Source: Candidatus Heimdallarchaeota archaeon (GTDB lineage Archaea; Asgardarchaeota; Heimdallarchaeia; JABLTI01). From it: a stretch of DNA of 6,483 nt. Positions within the stretch are counted from its first letter, which is position 1, and each line of letters opens with the position of its first letter. A program made the translations under genes and the position numbers. This document shows, piece after piece, positions 1-6,483 of this stretch. Where the stretch lies: NCBI GenBank assembly GCA_030614005.1, contig JAUWKS010000110.1, positions 1 through 6,483 on the forward strand, given 5' to 3'. The notes beneath the pieces were generated by a model. It ran no database searches. It had not been told where the DNA came from and saw only the letters and a program-made list of their open reading frames with translations.

Positions 1-783
1 ATCTATCAAGTGCACAAAACAAAGGAGTACTACCTTTCAATAATTTATGAGCAAGAAATTCCAGAGTATTACGATAATGGTATTTATCAAACAATAGACC
101 TCGGACTTATTAATATCGTTGCAGCGACGAATAGCCATGCAGGAAAATCGTTTATAATTAAAAATAAACGAGTGGACAAGTACTGGCAAATAAAAATAGA
201 GGAAATACAAAGCAAAAGAGATCATTGTAAAAAATACTCTAATCGATGGCACTGGTTAAATGATAAAATGTGGAAGATGACCAAGAAACAAGCGAACCAG
301 CAAAAAAACTTCCAACACAAAGTAAGCAAAAAGATTGTCGAGAACACCAGAGCAAACACTATAATCATCGGTGACTTGAACGTAAAAGCAATGAGTAAGA
401 GCAAGAAGAACGATAAAAAGAACGATAAGAGCAGACATAGAACCATGCAAAGCAGTGGTTCGATTGGTCGCTTCGCTGGATTCTTAACCTACAAAGCACA
501 GCGAGTAGGTAAGAAAGTAATAAGGATCAGTGAACGAAGAACAACCAAAAGATGCAGTTATTGCTTGACAAAGGAGAACAGAGCACTCTCCGAACGAACT
601 ATTAATTGTGATTGTGGACTAGTAATAGATCGAGACACAAGCAGTGCAGGAACGCAAATGCAACGCTTCCTCGCTCTGCTAGCACTATCACAGAACCGCC
701 TTATGGTCAAGCAACGACTCTTGAAAGATATTCGAGTCTTTCGAGAGAAGTTTTTTAGCGACATACAGCCAAACGTCAAATGA
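1..783 (+). CDS. tnpB: TnpB-family RNA-guided nuclease (IS200/IS605 or IS607 OrfB), 5'-truncated by window edge, rearranged RuvC-II
   Basis: Frame is open from base 1 (IYQVHKTKEYYL...). The GTG at 10 is an internal Val, as shown by alignment to copy 2. Motifs: RuvC-I TIDLG (D at 97-99), RuvC-II IIIGDL (G at 370-372), ISERRTTKRC (E at 532-534), Zn finger CSYC...CDC, RuvC-III DRD (D at 634-636). Confidence 0.95.
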   Translation: MYQVHKTKEYYLSIIYEQEIPEYYDNGIYQTIDLGLINIVAATNSHAGKSFIIKNKRVDKYWQIKIEEIQSKRDHCKKYSNRWHWLNDKMWKMTKKQANQQKNFQHKVSKKIVENTRANTIIIGDLNVKAMSKSKKNDKKNDKSRHRTMQSSGSIGRFAGFLTYKAQRVGKKVIRISERRTTKRCSYCLTKENRALSERTINCDCGLVIDRDTSSAGTQMQRFLALLALSQNRLMVKQRLLKDIRVFREKFFSDIQPNVK

Positions 784-830
784 AAGTTTCTCCCCCTCCA
801 GGGGAGTTGGGCGGACTCGCAGAGAATCAA
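1..830 (+). mobile_element. 3' portion of a tnpB-carrying IS element (IS200/IS605 superfamily-like); right end tentatively at TCAA 827-830
   Basis: tnpB 3' end is followed by GC-rich hairpin CTCCCC-ctcca-GGGGAG (790-806), GCG-gact-CGC (811-820) and TCAA (827-830), a tetranucleotide known as the right-end cleavage site of IS608-type elements. The exact end is uncertain; an alternative lies near 866. Confidence 0.6.
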
Positions 831-850
831 AAGTTAACAGAAATGCTTTA
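640..850 (+). ncRNA. Candidate omega-RNA/reRNA (TnpB guide scaffold plus flank-derived guide)
   Basis: TnpB omega-RNAs are known to overlap the tnpB 3' end and right end. Seen here: hairpin CTTGAA-agata-TTCGAG (720-736), possible long-range GAGTC(734-738)/GACTC(814-818) pairing, hairpin 790-806. Boundaries are inferred. Confidence 0.5.
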
Positions 851-885
851 AGCATCCGTTAACCAAGATAGACCATTAAAGTCTA
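833..885. repeat. Two inverted repeats downstream of tnpB
   Basis: GTTAAC-agaa-ATGCT-tta-AGCAT-cc-GTTAAC (833-863) and TAGAC-cattaaa-GTCTA (869-885). Confidence 0.6.
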
Positions 886-913
886 AGGAAATCTGTATAA
901 TAATTTGATTACT

Positions 914-918
914 GAGGT
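914..918 (+). promoter_or_regulatory. Shine-Dalgarno motif for the M42 peptidase
   Basis: GAGGT 8 nt upstream of the TTG at 927. Confidence 0.6.
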
Positions 919-926
919 TTATTTCT

Positions 927-1994
927 TTGAGCAAGCAAATACTAGAAGATTTGAAAGAATTATCACAAATAGTAGGCGTTTCATCTCGAGAGGAGCGAGT
1001 TGTTGAAGCAATCAAGCAAAAAGTTGAATCTTTAGCAGATGAAACAAGAATAGATAATTTAGGAAATTTAATTGTCACATTGAATGGTACCAAAAAAAAT
1101 GGTCCAGTATTAATGTTAGACGCACATACGGATGAAATTGGCTTAATGGTTAGGCATATCTCAGCTGATGGTTTTATTTATTTTGCCAAAGTTGGTGGAT
1201 TTGTTGATCTTATCTTCCCTAGCCAAACGGTTATCTTTATGCCTGATGACAAAGCACTCCCGCCTGTGTACGGTGTTATCGGTATAAACCCACCACATCT
1301 TATGTCTCCGGAAGCAAGAAAAAAAGTTCCTAGTGCAGATAATTTAGCAGTAGATATTGGTGCTTTTTCGGCAAAAGAAGTTCGAAAATTAGGCATAGAT
1401 GTTGGAACAACTGGAACGCTTGTTGGTGAATTCAAAGAGCTAGCAGGTGACCGTGTTTTAGGGAAAGCTTTTGACGATCGAACAGGATGTGTTGTTTTAA
1501 TTGAAACTCTTCGAAGATTGAGCAAAAACAGACCAGAGGGAACAATTGTTTTTAGCTTTTCATCCGCAGAAGAAGTTGGTGGTCGAGGAGCAACTACAGC
1601 AGCATACTCTATTGAACCTGACATAGCAATTGCTATTGAAAATACTACTGCAGCAGATACTCCTGGTGTTTCAGAACAAGACTGCCCTTGCAAACTTGAA
1701 GGTGGTCCTGCAATTACTGTTGCAGATAAATCATTAATTGTCAATAGTAAATTACTTGACAAACTAAAAGAACTAGCAAATACAAACGACATTCCTTGGC
1801 AATATAAAAAACCAATCTATGGCGGTACAGATGCCGGTAGAATACACATTGTTCGAGCAGGTATACCAGCAGGTGTTGTTTCAGTTCCTTGTCGATACAT
1901 TCACAGTCCGATCAGCATTCTTTCGTTAAAAGATATATCCCGAACCTGTGATTTGATTGAAGCTTTTTCCAAACATTTTCAAGAGTTGCTTTAA
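927..1994 (+). CDS. M42 family (TET/FrvX-like) dinuclear metallo-aminopeptidase
   Basis: Motifs IDNLGNLI, DAHTDEIG, KVGG, GKAFDDRTGC, SAEEVGGRGA, GGTDAG and PCRYIHSP. 355 aa, the usual M42 length. TTG start with SD. Confidence 0.95.
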   Translation: MSKQILEDLKELSQIVGVSSREERVVEAIKQKVESLADETRIDNLGNLIVTLNGTKKNGPVLMLDAHTDEIGLMVRHISADGFIYFAKVGGFVDLIFPSQTVIFMPDDKALPPVYGVIGINPPHLMSPEARKKVPSADNLAVDIGAFSAKEVRKLGIDVGTTGTLVGEFKELAGDRVLGKAFDDRTGCVVLIETLRRLSKNRPEGTIVFSFSSAEEVGGRGATTAAYSIEPDIAIAIENTTAADTPGVSEQDCPCKLEGGPAITVADKSLIVNSKLLDKLKELANTNDIPWQYKKPIYGGTDAGRIHIVRAGIPAGVVSVPCRYIHSPISILSLKDISRTCDLIEAFSKHFQELL

Positions 1995-2119
1995 GCAAGC
2001 AATTCTTAACTTTCATTTTATTTTGCTATAAAAATCATTATGGATTCTTTTAGTTAACTAATAATTTACAATTATTTCAAATTATGGTTCAAAGGTCTTT
2101 AATATGAGTGAAAGATTAA

Positions 2120-2617
2120 TTGTATTTGTACATTGTCAATGGTAGCTTTCAATGGGGATACCATGTTACTCTAACTTCTGAATCCCACAATCTTTGGTTT
2201 GGATGGACAAACGTCATAACAGCGGGAGAACATAAGACTAAAATCGGTGCAATTACTAATGATGGTACTTATGTTTTTCTTTGGCTTGATTCTTGTCGAG
2301 GATATACAATGGGTAGCTGGTCTTCTGGTGAACATAATAATCATTTAGAAATATGGTATTATATCCCTTTGGGGTATCAAATGGCTTGGACACCAGATGG
2401 ACAACCTTCTTACAGGTATGCTTATTGGCAATATGATCATGACGGACATAAGGATTGTGAAGCTGAATGGTTATTTAGCAATTTATTGTTATTTTATCCA
2501 TACAGTGTTACCGTTATCGGAGACGATATCGAGGAATATTTTAATGATACTCTTCATCCAGGTGTATCAGAAATGACTACGCTAACTTATTGGGGCAGTC
2601 ATTCATTCTACATTTAA
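2120..2617 (+). CDS. Hypothetical Trp/Tyr/His-rich protein; start uncertain, possibly 5'-damaged
   Basis: 165-codon open frame in AT-rich DNA with 10 Trp, followed by a T8 tract. The TTG start sits directly after a TAA and has no obvious SD. Confidence 0.6.
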   Translation: MYLYIVNGSFQWGYHVTLTSESHNLWFGWTNVITAGEHKTKIGAITNDGTYVFLWLDSCRGYTMGSWSSGEHNNHLEIWYYIPLGYQMAWTPDGQPSYRYAYWQYDHDGHKDCEAEWLFSNLLLFYPYSVTVIGDDIEEYFNDTLHPGVSEMTTLTYWGSHSFYI

Positions 2618-2637
2618 AATATGTCCTTGTATTTATC

Positions 2638-2645
2638 TTTTTTTT
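2638..2645 (+). terminator. Oligo-T archaeal-type terminator candidate
   Basis: T8 run 20 nt after the stop at 2617. Confidence 0.45.
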
Positions 2646-2717
2646 ACTTCAATGGGTAAAATAACAATAAATTAATAATGAAAAAAAAGAACTATTTAGA
2701 AGAATTAGGTGATTAAT

Positions 2718-3128
2718 ATGAAACGAAAATGTGCTAATTGTGGTGAGAATGTTGATCAAGAGAGTACTACTTGTTCCTCTTGTGGTGAAACCATTCCTCG
2801 AATAAACCAACTTGATACTCATTACCCTTTTCTTTCAACTATATCTTTGGTAATCGGTTGTTTTGAGATTGGTCTTTTTTCCTGGTTTGCAATGTTATTT
2901 GATTTACTCCCATCTTGGTTTGGAGGTCTGCTTAGTTGGATAATATTCAATAGTGTTTTCTTACTTTTCGTTGTTGTTGGAGTTGTCCTGGGAGCGATGA
3001 GTGTTAAAAAAGGAAGAAGAAAAAGAGCTATTATTGGATTAGTTTTCAACTCGATAGGGGTTATTCTACATACTTATCTAACAATTTTCTTTATAGTCCT
3101 TCTCAGTGACCCATATATAAACCTCTAA
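2718..3128 (+). CDS. Zinc-ribbon domain membrane protein (N-terminal CxxC...CxxC plus about 3 TM helices)
   Basis: MKRKCANCGENVDQESTTCSSCGE followed by three hydrophobic segments. AGGTGA (2707-2712) is an SD for ATG 2718, so the GTG at 2709 in the ORF track is probably part of the SD. Confidence 0.8.
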   Translation: MKRKCANCGENVDQESTTCSSCGETIPRINQLDTHYPFLSTISLVIGCFEIGLFSWFAMLFDLLPSWFGGLLSWIIFNSVFLLFVVVGVVLGAMSVKKGRRKRAIIGLVFNSIGVILHTYLTIFFIVLLSDPYINL

Positions 3129-3143
3129 TTTTTTTCTTTTTTT
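3129..3143 (+). terminator. Oligo-T terminator candidate
   Basis: T7-C-T7 immediately after the stop codon at 3128. Confidence 0.55.
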
Positions 3144-3154
3144 AATCAGAAAGT

Positions 3155-3341
3155 CTAATTGAATTCTATATCAAAATAATAAATGAAACCAAATATCATT
3201 AATACTGCTGCAACACAAAAGGACAATATCCCAAAAACAATTGGTGCAGGTGTTTTAGCTTTATTAGTAAAAATACCTAAAGTGAAATCTTATATTAAGT
3301 CAATATTGACTGAGCTTAAAACAAGTCAACAAAATTACCAT
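3155..3341 (-). pseudogene. Possible decayed small membrane-protein gene
   Basis: Minus-strand frame DFTLGIFTNKAKTPAPIVFGILSFCVAAVLMIFGFIYYFDIEFN* has a TM-like stretch but is preceded by an in-frame TAA. Joining it to ATG 3341 (MVILLTCF) needs a frameshift. Confidence 0.3.
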
Positions 3342-3466
3342 TAAATAAAAAGATTCAATATTACCTTTTAATCATATTAACAAACTATCTTCATGAAAAC
3401 AGTATATCATATATAGAAAACTTCGTTAAGGAGAATGAAATTTTTTTTAAAAATTTTCAATAATTA

Positions 3467-3547
3467 TTCGCACTGACGCGTGAGGAATCGCTGTAAGCGA
3501 TGAGTAGCGGCGATGCGAGCACGCCACAAAGCGTGAGCAATTGAGTA
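3467..3547. other. GC-rich multi-hairpin island with five GAGNA motifs (REP/MITE-like or structured ncRNA candidate)
   Basis: 43/70 G+C in 3469-3538 within very AT-rich flanks. Stems 3467-3486, ATCGC/GCGAT (3487-3501), or 8-bp 3487-3494/3507-3514, and CACGC/GCGTG (3520-3535). Confidence 0.65.
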
Positions 3548-3569
3548 TTTATTTTCTAAATTCAACACA

Positions 3570-3743
3570 TTACTTCCTAAGAATAAAAAATTCTCTTACA
3601 AAGTTATTAAGTACTGAATTATGGAATCGATTTGATGTTATATCTATGGCAAAATAATCACCAAGTTCTTCTCTATAAGTTACATTAGACTTGTTGTTCT
3701 CTCCAAGACTCATTATACACCCTCTTTCCTTAAATTGTAAACC
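3570..3743 (-). other. In-frame 57-codon continuation of the LAGLIDADG-HTH ORF beyond its TGA (or a separate 47-aa ORF from ATG 3713)
   Basis: After TGA (3744-3746) the same frame reads GLQFKERGCIMSLGENNKSNVTYREELGDYFAIDITSNRFHNSVLNNFVREFFILRK to TAA at 3570-3572. Confidence 0.55.
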
Positions 3744-5195
3744 TCAAAGTAATTGTATCATTTTTTCATTTGGTCGAGTATCTATTAGACAATGGGAGCT
3801 TCGAGAATGAATGAGTAGTTTTGAATGTTCTTTGAGAATATCTAATAATGAACGATTATAGAATGTGTATATTTTCATTAGATTAGCTATTGGAATTGTT
3901 GTAATATTTAACTCATAAGTTGATAACAATGTTCTCTTTATGTTGACTTCTTTTGCCAAATCTTGTTGAGTGTGATTTTGTAAACGACGCAATTTTCGTA
4001 TTTTCTCACCGAAATTTGATAGACTGAAATATTGCACCAAAAGGAAGTTAAAATACCCAGTTGTCAATTTTTTTTGTTGAACATCTACTACTTGCCCTTT
4101 CCAAACTCCTTGTTTACGTAATGTTGTAGTTTTTCGAGCAAACCGATTAACTCTTCGACTGAGTAAGATTCCTAAATCCTGTTTTTTTTGTGGATGGTTT
4201 GTACCTATGAGTTGTGCAAACTGCTTTCTAGATTCACCTGCAATATTGAGACTAAATGTTGTTCCACCAAAAACTGATTGAGTGTAAAATCGATGTAGGA
4301 TGTTGTGTAGTGTTAAAAAGTTTGAAAAGTCTTTTAGCAGTTGTTTTGAAGCTGTACCAAAACTGATTGTTGATATATAACTCCCATCTGCATCCATCAA
4401 TCCACGCCAAAAAGCAGAGCGAAAAACAGGTTCAGACTGAATAAGAAGCGGTTCACGCAAGTGGGGATATTTTCGTTCATTGATAGGTTGTCTGGAGAGA
4501 AAATTGAAGAATCGAACAATCCATTTGCTAAGCACATTGACATTCCATGCTTGAGCATTTTTTTGAGCAAAAAATTCGATATTTGTTTGAAATATTGTTT
4601 CTAATGATTTAACGAGATTCTCAATATGCTCTTTCGAGCTATCGATTATATTAACAAAATAATTTGCTAAGTGTCCATCTCCCATAATTACTCCTGTAAG
4701 ATACGCTAGCTCTTCAGTGAGCATGAGTGGGAGTTGAAAACCTTCTCCTCGTGCAGATTGAAACTGGATGTACTGTTTTCCTTGAAAGAATGTCTCCCAG
4801 GAGGGAACCAACCGGAATAATGGAAAGGGAAGGCGCTGTTGCTCTTCGATATATGATATAATTCGCTTCTGCCAGTCTCGAATGGATTTTGAAATATTTG
4901 AGCCTAAAAAATAGTGATGTGCTTTCTCCGCATGAGCAAGTGATTGTTTTCGTATCCTTGAAACCCACTCTTGATTTAGTAGTATATAAGGGAAGGATTG
5001 GATAATGCGTTCTCCCGAAATAAAGTCTACTTTACGGAGCATAATTGGATATAATTGTAGTTGTCCTGTTTCTGTTTGGAATTTATCTCCTTGCCTTTTT
5101 TCCAGTAGCTCGTTTGCAGTTAGCCAAGTATTTTGTGCTGCTGGTGTAGGATCAAGTAGTAAAGGATCCGATTCCCAATGCAAGAAGGCAGGCAT
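3744..5195 (-). CDS. Free-standing double-motif LAGLIDADG (DOD-type) endonuclease-like protein fused to an XRE/Cro-type HTH
   Basis: Motif 1 LAYLTGVIMGDG (aa 163-174), motif 2 AFWRGLMDADG (aa 261-271), HTH FGEKIRKLRRLQNHTQQDLAKEVNIKRTLLSTYE (aa ~395-428). AGGAGA SD on the minus strand at 5202-5207. No intein splice-junction residues seen. Confidence 0.88.
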   Translation of the reverse strand: MPAFLHWESDPLLLDPTPAAQNTWLTANELLEKRQGDKFQTETGQLQLYPIMLRKVDFISGERIIQSFPYILLNQEWVSRIRKQSLAHAEKAHHYFLGSNISKSIRDWQKRIISYIEEQQRLPFPLFRLVPSWETFFQGKQYIQFQSARGEGFQLPLMLTEELAYLTGVIMGDGHLANYFVNIIDSSKEHIENLVKSLETIFQTNIEFFAQKNAQAWNVNVLSKWIVRFFNFLSRQPINERKYPHLREPLLIQSEPVFRSAFWRGLMDADGSYISTISFGTASKQLLKDFSNFLTLHNILHRFYTQSVFGGTTFSLNIAGESRKQFAQLIGTNHPQKKQDLGILLSRRVNRFARKTTTLRKQGVWKGQVVDVQQKKLTTGYFNFLLVQYFSLSNFGEKIRKLRRLQNHTQQDLAKEVNIKRTLLSTYELNITTIPIANLMKIYTFYNRSLLDILKEHSKLLIHSRSSHCLIDTRPNEKMIQLL

Positions 5196-5273
5196 CTAGT
5201 ATCTCCTGAAATAATAGTACAGTTTCTCTTTCTTAAAGACCCCTTTGTACAATCGTACAGATTACTAATTGTT

Positions 5274-5331
5274 TAGCTATTCTTTTAAGTAAGCGATTAT
5301 TACTTTCGGTAATCTCATTAGAAAATAGCTA
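5274..5331. repeat. Nested imperfect hairpin in the divergent intergenic region; candidate IS left-end structure
   Basis: Outer stem TAGCTATT(5274-5281)/AATAGCTA(5324-5331); inner ATTAC-tttcg-GTAAT (5299-5313). Confidence 0.45.
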
Positions 5332-5349
5332 TATATCTAGCTTAATATA
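5320..5349 (+). promoter_or_regulatory. Candidate archaeal BRE/TATA promoter for tnpB copy 2
   Basis: Purine-rich AGAAAATAGC, then TATATAT (5330-5336), then TTAATATA (5342-5349), upstream of ATG 5367. Confidence 0.35.
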
Positions 5350-5366
5350 TACTTTACTGAACGAAA

Positions 5367-6483
5367 ATGCTCTCAAAAGAACGGCGCCTCACAAGAAAAG
5401 CATACAAAAAACTAATAGCTGACTTGCCAAAGGACGAATTAGAGAAAGCAATGGAACAAGTACAACAAATAGCAAAACCACCAAAGAAAAAACCGCTACA
5501 ACTAGCAGCTAAAGTAAAGATCAAACCAACTCCAGAGCAAGAAGAAGTTCTCTGGGCACTAGCAGAAAATTGTCGATTAATACATTACTTTGCTAACAAA
5601 GAGCGAAAAGAATGGTGGGATAAAAACAAGCACTTGCCAAAGAAGAAAAGAGACAAAGAAACAAAACCTACCTACAACAAGCAATCAGCACAACTACCAA
5701 AGTTAAAAGCCCTTTATCCTCGTTATGAACAAAATTATTCTAAAACATTACAAGAAACACTGAAGCAATTAAAAGCTGATTATAAATCATTTTTTGCTCT
5801 AAGAAAGAATGGTTACGAGGATGCACAACCACCGAGATTCAAAGGAAAAAAATACTTTACCACCATGCATTACAATCAGAAAGGATTCAAAATCGAAGGA
5901 ACAAAAATTAACTTTACTCATTTCTATCCTTCAAAAAAAGCAAAAGACAAAGTAGACCTCACATTTGAGATGGAAGGAAAATTCACCTTTGAAGGTAAAA
6001 AAGTGAAACACGTAACCATCTTCCAAAAACACAAAACAAAAGAATTTTTCTTATCAATAATTTACGAAGAAGAAACACAAGAATATTTTGACAATGGTAT
6101 TTACCAAACAATAGACTTGGGAGTAATCAACTTGGTTGCAGCAGTGAACAGTCACGAGGGAAAAACAATAACGATAAAAAACAAACGAGTAGACAAGTAC
6201 TGGCAACCAAAAATAGAAGAGTTAACATCAAAGAGAGATCATTGCAAAAAATACTCTAATCGCTGGTACTGGTTAAACAACAAACTCAGCAAAATGATAT
6301 CAAAACAAGCGAACCAGCAAAAAGATTTCCAGCACAAAATAAGCAAGCAAGTGGTTGAAAACACCAAAGCGAATACTATCATCATTGGTGATTTAACCGT
6401 TAAGGAAATGTCGAAGAGTAAAAAAAGAGATAAAAAGAACGATAAGAGCAGACATAGAACCATGCAAAGCAGTGGTTCGATTG
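5367..6483 (+). CDS. tnpB: TnpB-family RNA-guided nuclease, copy 2, 3'-truncated by window edge
   Basis: My translation is open from ATG 5367 (alternative ATG 5451) to the window end, 372 codons. N-terminal KVKIKPTPEQEEVLWALAENCRLIHY (HTH_OrfB_IS605-like), PPRFKGK, RuvC-I TIDLG (D 6114-6116), IIIGDL (G 6387-6389). Confidence 0.95.
   Translation, partial: MLSKERRLTRKAYKKLIADLPKDELEKAMEQVQQIAKPPKKKPLQLAAKVKIKPTPEQEEVLWALAENCRLIHYFANKERKEWWDKNKHLPKKKRDKETKPTYNKQSAQLPKLKALYPRYEQNYSKTLQETLKQLKADYKSFFALRKNGYEDAQPPRFKGKKYFTTMHYNQKGFKIEGTKINFTHFYPSKKAKDKVDLTFEMEGKFTFEGKKVKHVTIFQKHKTKEFFLSIIYEEETQEYFDNGIYQTIDLGVINLVAAVNSHEGKTITIKNKRVDKYWQPKIEELTSKRDHCKKYSNRWYWLNNKLSKMISKQANQQKDFQHKISKQVVENTKANTIIIGDLTVKEMSKSKKRDKKNDKSRHRTMQSSGSI
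6018..6483 (+). repeat. Diverged direct repeat of 1-466 (offset 6017, no indels); last 55 nt identical to 412-466
   Basis: Codon-by-codon alignment gives 32 amino-acid differences in the first 137 codons, then an exact 55-nt match of 6429-6483 to 412-466. Confidence 0.95.

Follow-up and report, generated by a model that had tools for sequence, protein, structure and literature searches.

A contig break in a 72-nt repeat and an old recombinant patch between two tnpB copies of a Heimdall-group archaeon

The DNA studied here (the window) is the whole of contig C86, 6483 nt in length, from the 126 contigs (3.62 Mb) that make up the metagenome-assembled genome (MAG) of a Heimdall-group Asgard archaeon (assembly GCA_030614005.1, contig JAUWKS010000110.1). 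Parts of two tnpB genes occupy its two ends. These genes, copy 1 at the left and copy 2 at the right, are separated by about 6 kb and point the same way, and positions 1-466 can be aligned with 6018-6483 without a gap. From 1-411 and 6018-6428 the copies differ at 105 of 411 positions, 16 of them within the 51 nt that precede the junction; then 412-466 and 6429-6483 are identical at 55 of 55 positions, up to the last base of the contig; the 56-mer is unique. How does diverged sequence give way so abruptly to perfect identity? The initial annotation considered an exchange between TnpB lineages, a 6017-bp circle or tandem unit, and a break in the assembly at a shared repeat. Very probably, the answer combines an assembly break within a 72-nt repeat, a linear chromosome, and an old patch of ~400 nt that was exchanged between tnpB copies. 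The geometry of the repeat, the adjacency of two contigs, the ends of the inserted element, and the incongruence of the tnpB trees are the observations on which this reading is built.

The contig end and the 72-nt repeat

The exact repeat common to both tnpB copies is 72 nt long. In copy 1 it occupies positions 412-483 (+ strand). In copy 2 it is divided between two contigs, C86:6429-6483 (+ strand) and C104:39-55, such that the end of C86 holds the first 55-mer of the repeat and the start of C104 holds the last. Positions 1-55 of C104 equal C86:429-483, and base 56 of C104 departs from copy 1; the 55-mers at either end of the repeat are present at these places only. The figure of 55 thus has no biological meaning in itself, since the true repeat is 72 nt and the contig end holds just its first 55-mer. 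The claim that the 3' modules of the two genes are identical from the junction onward is likewise refuted, as identity stops 17 nt past position 6483.

The statistics of the contig ends point the same way. When each contig end is searched for its longest terminal match to another place in the assembly, that match is exactly 127 nt at 76 of the 252 ends, with a further tail at 55-126 nt; for the 3' end of C86 and the 5' end of C104 it is exactly 55 nt each. These features resemble an unresolved repeat edge in a SPAdes-type, multi-k assembly, in which the overlap at the C86 end corresponds to exactly one k value (55), the complementary contig (C104) opens on the repeat's last k-mer, and the overlap at most of the remaining contig ends equals the top k value (127). 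With a multi-k de Bruijn assembler (k up to 127), the 72-nt stretch would have formed a repeat edge at the k = 55 stage, leaving C86 to stop on the first 55-mer and C104 to start on the last, with the junction unbridged at higher k. Indeed, the tnpB family fragments this assembly generally: 12 of the 16 right ends of TnpB elements lie within 400 nt of a contig end, and most of the roughly nine tnpB starts in the genome are found at contig ends.

Two further results join C86 to C104. First, joining C86:5367-6483 to C104:39 onward yields an open TnpB of 501 amino acids (aa), which aligns end to end with the copy on contig C8, the sole complete copy in the genome. Copy 2 of tnpB (5367-6483, + strand, identified by Pfam and by this stitching) therefore contributes aa 1-372, with an in-frame continuation at C104:39-427. 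Second, in G010, a genome of the same genus, C86:875-2041 matches L040:16106-14943 and C104:450-8000 matches L040:14944-7396, so that the two stretches abut at L040:14943/14944. In G005, also of the same genus, the gene order is again an M42 peptidase gene followed by the first gene of C104. Because both stretches abut in G010 and have the same order in G005, C104 comes after C86. Contig-end statistics, the start of C104, and synteny in G010 together bear out the third of the initial possibilities, a break at a shared repeat with k = 55. The 55/55 identity at the end of C86 is an assembler footprint, left where a short-read contig was broken inside a tnpB repeat.

A recombinant patch within tnpB

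As another possibility, the initial annotation had proposed a swap or homogenisation of the 3' module between two TnpB lineages. In part this is correct, since a real breakpoint lies at about 396-412; however, only a patch of ~400 nt (403-802, + strand) is shared, rather than the whole module, the terminal hairpin, or the right end. Within this patch copy 1 and copy 2 (C104) are 92.7% identical and, as judged from segment trees, approximately unbiased (AU) tests, quartets, and a Fisher test, form one lineage with a tnpB remnant on contig C29. The patch runs from the Lys-rich linker that follows RuvC-II through the zinc finger and RuvC-III into the first part of the ωRNA-like region.

Trees were compared for two segments defined in copy 1 coordinates, A (1-411) and B (484-876). 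In segment A, copy 1 groups with C72, C8 and L018 (support 98/99) and copy 2 groups with L007 (94/94). In the tree of segment B, copy 1 has copy 2 as its sister and C29 as the next relative (96/92), and C72, C8, L018, L007 and L022 stay together elsewhere in the tree. AU tests reject a clade of copy 1 and copy 2 in segment A (p = 1e-4) and a clade of copy 2 and L007 in segment B (p = 1.7e-4). Site patterns in the quartet of copy 1, copy 2, C72 and L007 locate the change. Across positions 1-402, no site unites copy 1 with copy 2 and 32 sites pair copy 1 with C72 and copy 2 with L007; across 403-802 the counts are 22 and 2, and in the terminal hairpin (824-856) they are 1 (site 832) and 5. The difference between 1-402 and 403-802 is significant by Fisher test (p = 1e-13). 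The recombination breakpoint therefore lies at about 396-412, and the original pattern returns at about 824; the 55-mers that cross the breakpoints occur nowhere else in the assembly. The 72-nt exact run itself is unremarkable, because its p value, given a patch of 92.7% identity, is about 0.04-0.10, and exact runs of 50-120 nt are common between paralog pairs. The switch in identity at ~403-412 is the left edge of a real, gene-conversion-like patch of ~400 nt. Its passage from one tnpB lineage to another would have taken place by homologous recombination or gene conversion, and long ago, given ~7% divergence since. We infer both conversion as the mechanism and its direction. Concerted evolution of the 3' module across the genome was considered as well and dropped; monophyly of the genome's own 3' segments has an AU p of 0.063 and is neither shown nor clearly rejected.

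Several points weigh against the combined reading of an assembly break plus an exchanged patch. In segment B a clade of copy 1 and C72 is rejected only weakly, at a marginal p = 0.04, and the choice of clades to test in that segment followed inspection of the tree. Conservation is higher in the 3' third of the gene for every pair, all paralog pairs being 85-91% identical there vs 75-79% in segment A, so that rate heterogeneity explains part of the rise in identity. The copy 2 junction (C86/C104) stayed unbridged at k of 77 or more although the copy 1 junction was bridged, a point of difference from a SPAdes-type repeat edge. Finally, short contigs outside the MAG could supply extra edges at the repeat.

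The conservation of the 3' third, together with the frequency of long exact runs and the ordinary p value of the 72-nt run, is what would be seen if there had been no recombination at all and the switch reflected stronger purifying selection on the part from RuvC-II to the ωRNA, which codes for both protein and RNA. This explanation is improbable. Differences in rate do not affect tree topology, yet copy 1 and copy 2, which sit in separate clades in segment A, become sisters in segment B, and their segment A partners remain together there; congruence is rejected by the AU tests, and the site patterns flip at ~403 and back at ~824.

It could also be argued that the mosaic was made by the assembler switching between paralogs at a shared repeat, since the breakpoint falls at the very repeat that interrupted the assembly and the MAG is fragmented at the tnpB family. 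The chance of this is very small. The mosaic holds for either pairing of the repeat exits, because both exits carry the same 3' lineage. De Bruijn k-mers derive from reads, and the clade-specific sites at 389-396 and 403-429, on either side of the breakpoint, are together contained in single 55-mers with no second occurrence in the assembly. Furthermore, the independent remnant on C29, in a contig of 29.5 kb, has the same patch lineage.

This remnant (G000:C29, ~3796-4290, - strand) is a 5'-truncated tnpB whose first base corresponds to position 387 of copy 1, at a distance of 10-25 nt from the patch's left breakpoint. It is fused in frame behind what appears, by eye only, to be the N-terminus of a host gene of the aminotransferase type. 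As a matter of speculation, a truncated donor such as C29 would explain the shared left edge. A broader version of this idea is that the Lys-rich linker after RuvC-II is a preferred boundary between TnpB modules, that a cassette of catalytic tail, zinc finger and ωRNA scaffold is repeatedly exchanged between lineages within the genome, and that remnants like C29 act as donors that fix the left edge. We consider this doubtful; if true, TnpB protein and RNA would not co-evolve as one unit but would form two modules that recombine. Mosaic insertion sequences that arise from recombination between paralogs share with this locus the incongruence of trees along the element and the sharp breakpoints within one genome. 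Unlike them, the patch seen here is internal, with both edges visible, is ~7% diverged, and has its left edge 10-25 nt from the start of the C29 remnant.

Linear order of the locus and ends of the element

Synteny with G010 and G005 makes the interval from C86:2042 to C104:~451 a single insertion of 4853-4855 nt relative to these relatives (window part 2042-6483, + strand, continuing to C104:451) and makes the M42 gene chromosomal rather than cargo. This gene, an M42 glutamyl aminopeptidase (927-1994, + strand; Pfam Peptidase_M42, E = 2e-94), is syntenic in 28 of the 31 genomes searched and adjoins the C104 genes in G010 and G005; 21 related tnpB loci provided nothing on the order of the M42 and C104 genes. 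To its left lies another element, element 1. The homology of both G010 and G001 to C86 begins at 875, which places the right end of element 1 at 876. The locus would therefore read, in order, element 1 (tnpB copy 1, an ωRNA-like region, and the right end at 876), the M42 gene, the 4.85-kb TnpB element (2042 to C104:451), and the genes of C104. G001 is not the same strain but a different species (92% nucleotide identity) without copy 1 at the site, and it thus has no bearing on the copy 1 junction.

That 412-6428 is instead a real 6017-bp circle, excised or amplified in tandem by recombination between the tnpB copies and carrying all of the cargo genes, is hardly credible: the graph topology (in1-R-E-R-out2) formally permits a loop, the chimeric reading frame (5367-6428 plus 412-783) is intact at 477 aa with zero stops on translation, and the assembler left the copy 2 junction unresolved, but a circular contig would repeat its own first k-mer, whereas the last 55 nt of C86 equal the internal 412-466 and its first 55 nt are unique; the missing exit of the repeat is supplied by C104, whose genes lie beside the M42 gene in two congeners with linear synteny; a branch at k above 72 would end the contig after the full repeat, not 55 nt into it; and the proposed circle cuts across the real element ends at 876, 2042 and C104:451, which do not fit its junction.

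On the linear chromosome, the ends of the 4.85-kb insertion can be read directly from the empty sites. With a slash marking the junction, the left side reads ...ATTAT/GGATTC..., the right side reads ...GATAGACCAT/AAAGAAC..., and the empty sites in G010 and G005 read ...ATTAT/AAAGA.... The motif directly 5' of the insertion is TTAT (2038-2041, + strand). The empty site of element 1 in G010 also has TTAT, directly before the homologous sequence at the junction. Because AT is common to both junctions of the 4.85-kb insertion, a 2-bp duplication or crossover is allowed beside insertion with no duplication. The left end spans ~80 nt (2042-2123, + strand), includes a GTTAAC motif, and recurs on contigs C18 and C89; it has the motif GTTAACCAA in common with the right end. 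An earlier candidate for the left end of this element, at ~5249, was taken from the LAGLIDADG-HTH (helix-turn-helix) paralog on C63; it proved to be only a module boundary, as synteny puts the start at 2042. Inserted 3' of TTAT, the mobile unit runs from this left end through two small genes and a LAGLIDADG-HTH gene to tnpB and an ωRNA-like region.

The same spacer has been used more than once. In G001 (L042, G001:C461) a different, inverted tnpB element is present at 3270-3404, 12 nt from the insertion point at C86:2041. Because a congener has this separate element so close by, the spacer after the M42 gene is a repeated target.

TnpB proteins, cargo, and related systems

Across the two copies, Pfam identifies both open reading frames (ORFs) as tnpB, with OrfB_IS605, Cas12f1-like_TNB, and HTH_OrfB_IS605 above cut-offs. 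Copy 1 (1-783, + strand) is the 3' part of the gene, from ~aa 218 to the stop, cut by the 5' end of the contig (Pfam OrfB_IS605 and Cas12f1-like_TNB; tblastn comparison with copy 2 as stitched). The RuvC-I Asp (IDLG) and the RuvC-III Asp (DRD) are present. However, the RuvC-II Glu of solved TnpBs aligns to a Gly (IIIGDL) in all copies, at 364-378 of the window in copy 1 and at the equivalent positions in copy 2 and C8; thus, the TnpB copies depart from the canonical D-E-D triad of RuvC. The Gly at RuvC-II appears to match a published class of TnpBs in which this Glu is replaced by Gly and the catalytic site is rearranged (Altae-Tran et al. 2023, PNAS, PMC10691335).

The structured, ωRNA-like 3' region of element 1 (617-876, + strand) has hairpins at 790-806 and 833-863 and finishes at the right end, ...GATAGACCAT, at 867-876. 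Sixteen right ends carry the same terminal sequence and diverge directly after it. An alifold consensus, built from eight related copies only, contains five compensatory pairs in the two terminal hairpins; an Rfam scan of the window and the start of C104 at E ≤ 1 matched no family. In the established model of TnpB homing, the guide lies after the right end and the transposon-associated motif (TAM) lies at the target. The flank after each right end, and the TTAT that precedes it in the empty site, seem to be positioned like a TnpB guide and its TAM. Thus, TTAT is the predicted TAM, the 3' region may function as a guide-bearing ωRNA, and the flank at 877-896 (+ strand), judged from its position next to the right end, is the predicted guide segment of ωRNA 1.

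The 4.85-kb element contains four genes and among them no Cas1-like gene. Next to the left end lies an ORF of 165 aa (2120-2617, + strand) without a Pfam family, which has an 82% (aa) paralog on C9; it is followed by a 139-aa zinc-ribbon ORF (2709-3128, + strand) with paralogs on C74 and C9. A 483-aa protein (3744-5195, - strand), WhiA/meganuclease-like by Pfam (LAGLIDADG_3 plus HTH_3), is encoded divergently from tnpB, the fourth gene. Such LAGLIDADG-HTH genes have at least 12 paralogs in the genome (31-83% aa identity; contigs C63, C48, C8, C9, C15, C110, C41, C67, C122 and C78). The divergent LAGLIDADG-HTH/tnpB pair, ~170 nt apart, occurs at four loci of this genome and at nine loci in other Heimdall MAGs, and on C63 the LAGLIDADG-HTH gene is present without tnpB. 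The 165-aa and zinc-ribbon ORFs also lie adjacent to each other at C9:163153-164202 (84% nucleotide identity), without element ends, and the zinc-ribbon ORF is found by itself at C74:20106-20608 (94%); the C9 pair and the C74 ORF are possible sources of captured cargo. Within the element, the arms of a 27-nt inverted repeat (2475-2501/2652-2678, 89% complementary) enclose the 3' end of the 165-aa ORF together with spacer sequence ahead of the zinc-ribbon ORF.

Behind a second ~80-nt left end, on C18 (L045, 1-8938), lie a complete type I restriction-modification system (HsdR, HsdS, HsdM) and, between it and the end of the contig, an SF2/MZB helicase. The C18 locus may be a larger sister element with defence cargo.

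Profile searches of the assembly, which is ~90% complete, found neither Y1_Tnp (PF01797) nor the Resolvase family of serine recombinases (PF00239), in contrast to the at least 16 right ends of TnpB elements in the genome. Mobilisation may therefore occur in trans or via an enzyme that was not recognised. In their apparent insertion 3' of a short motif without clear target duplication, and in a putative structured RNA that overlaps the 3' end of tnpB and stops at the right end, with the flank placed as a predicted guide, the elements described here resemble the tnpB-only (IS1341-type) members of IS200/IS605. They differ in the three extra genes of the 4.85-kb element and, relative to IS200/IS605, in that Y1 TnpA was found neither in the element nor in the assembly. 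The AT shared by the junctions would also fit a 2-bp crossover like that of IS607; the assembly search found no serine recombinase.

The closest relatives are the systems described in the TnpB classification paper (PMC10691335), which include WhiA/meganuclease-like cargo and the aCas1-TnpB transposons of Asgard archaea. The likeness extends to the Gly at the RuvC-II Glu position, the LAGLIDADG plus HTH neighbour, the extra cargo genes, the asymmetric ends, the Heimdall/Asgard host, and a left end shared with the larger, helicase-carrying element on C18. The 4.85-kb copy differs from the published systems in that it lacks a Cas1-like gene as well as a serine recombinase and a Y1 transposase. 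The element family is already published in outline; the present locus shows its exact ends along with two empty sites (TTAT/). A literature search found no paper that combines TnpB, Asgard and LAGLIDADG, and PMC9956272 states nothing on recombination among TnpB elements.

The locus carries a caution, in that an exact, k-mer-length match at a contig end is the footprint of an assembler, and reading it as a circle leads to the false call of a mobile element. The positive gains are modest: for one 4.85-kb TnpB/LAGLIDADG-HTH element from a Heimdall-group Asgard archaeon, the exact ends, the empty sites, and a TTAT target are now in hand, as is evidence for the exchange of internal patches among its tnpB paralogs. 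Both results could aid the annotation or mining of Asgard TnpB systems.

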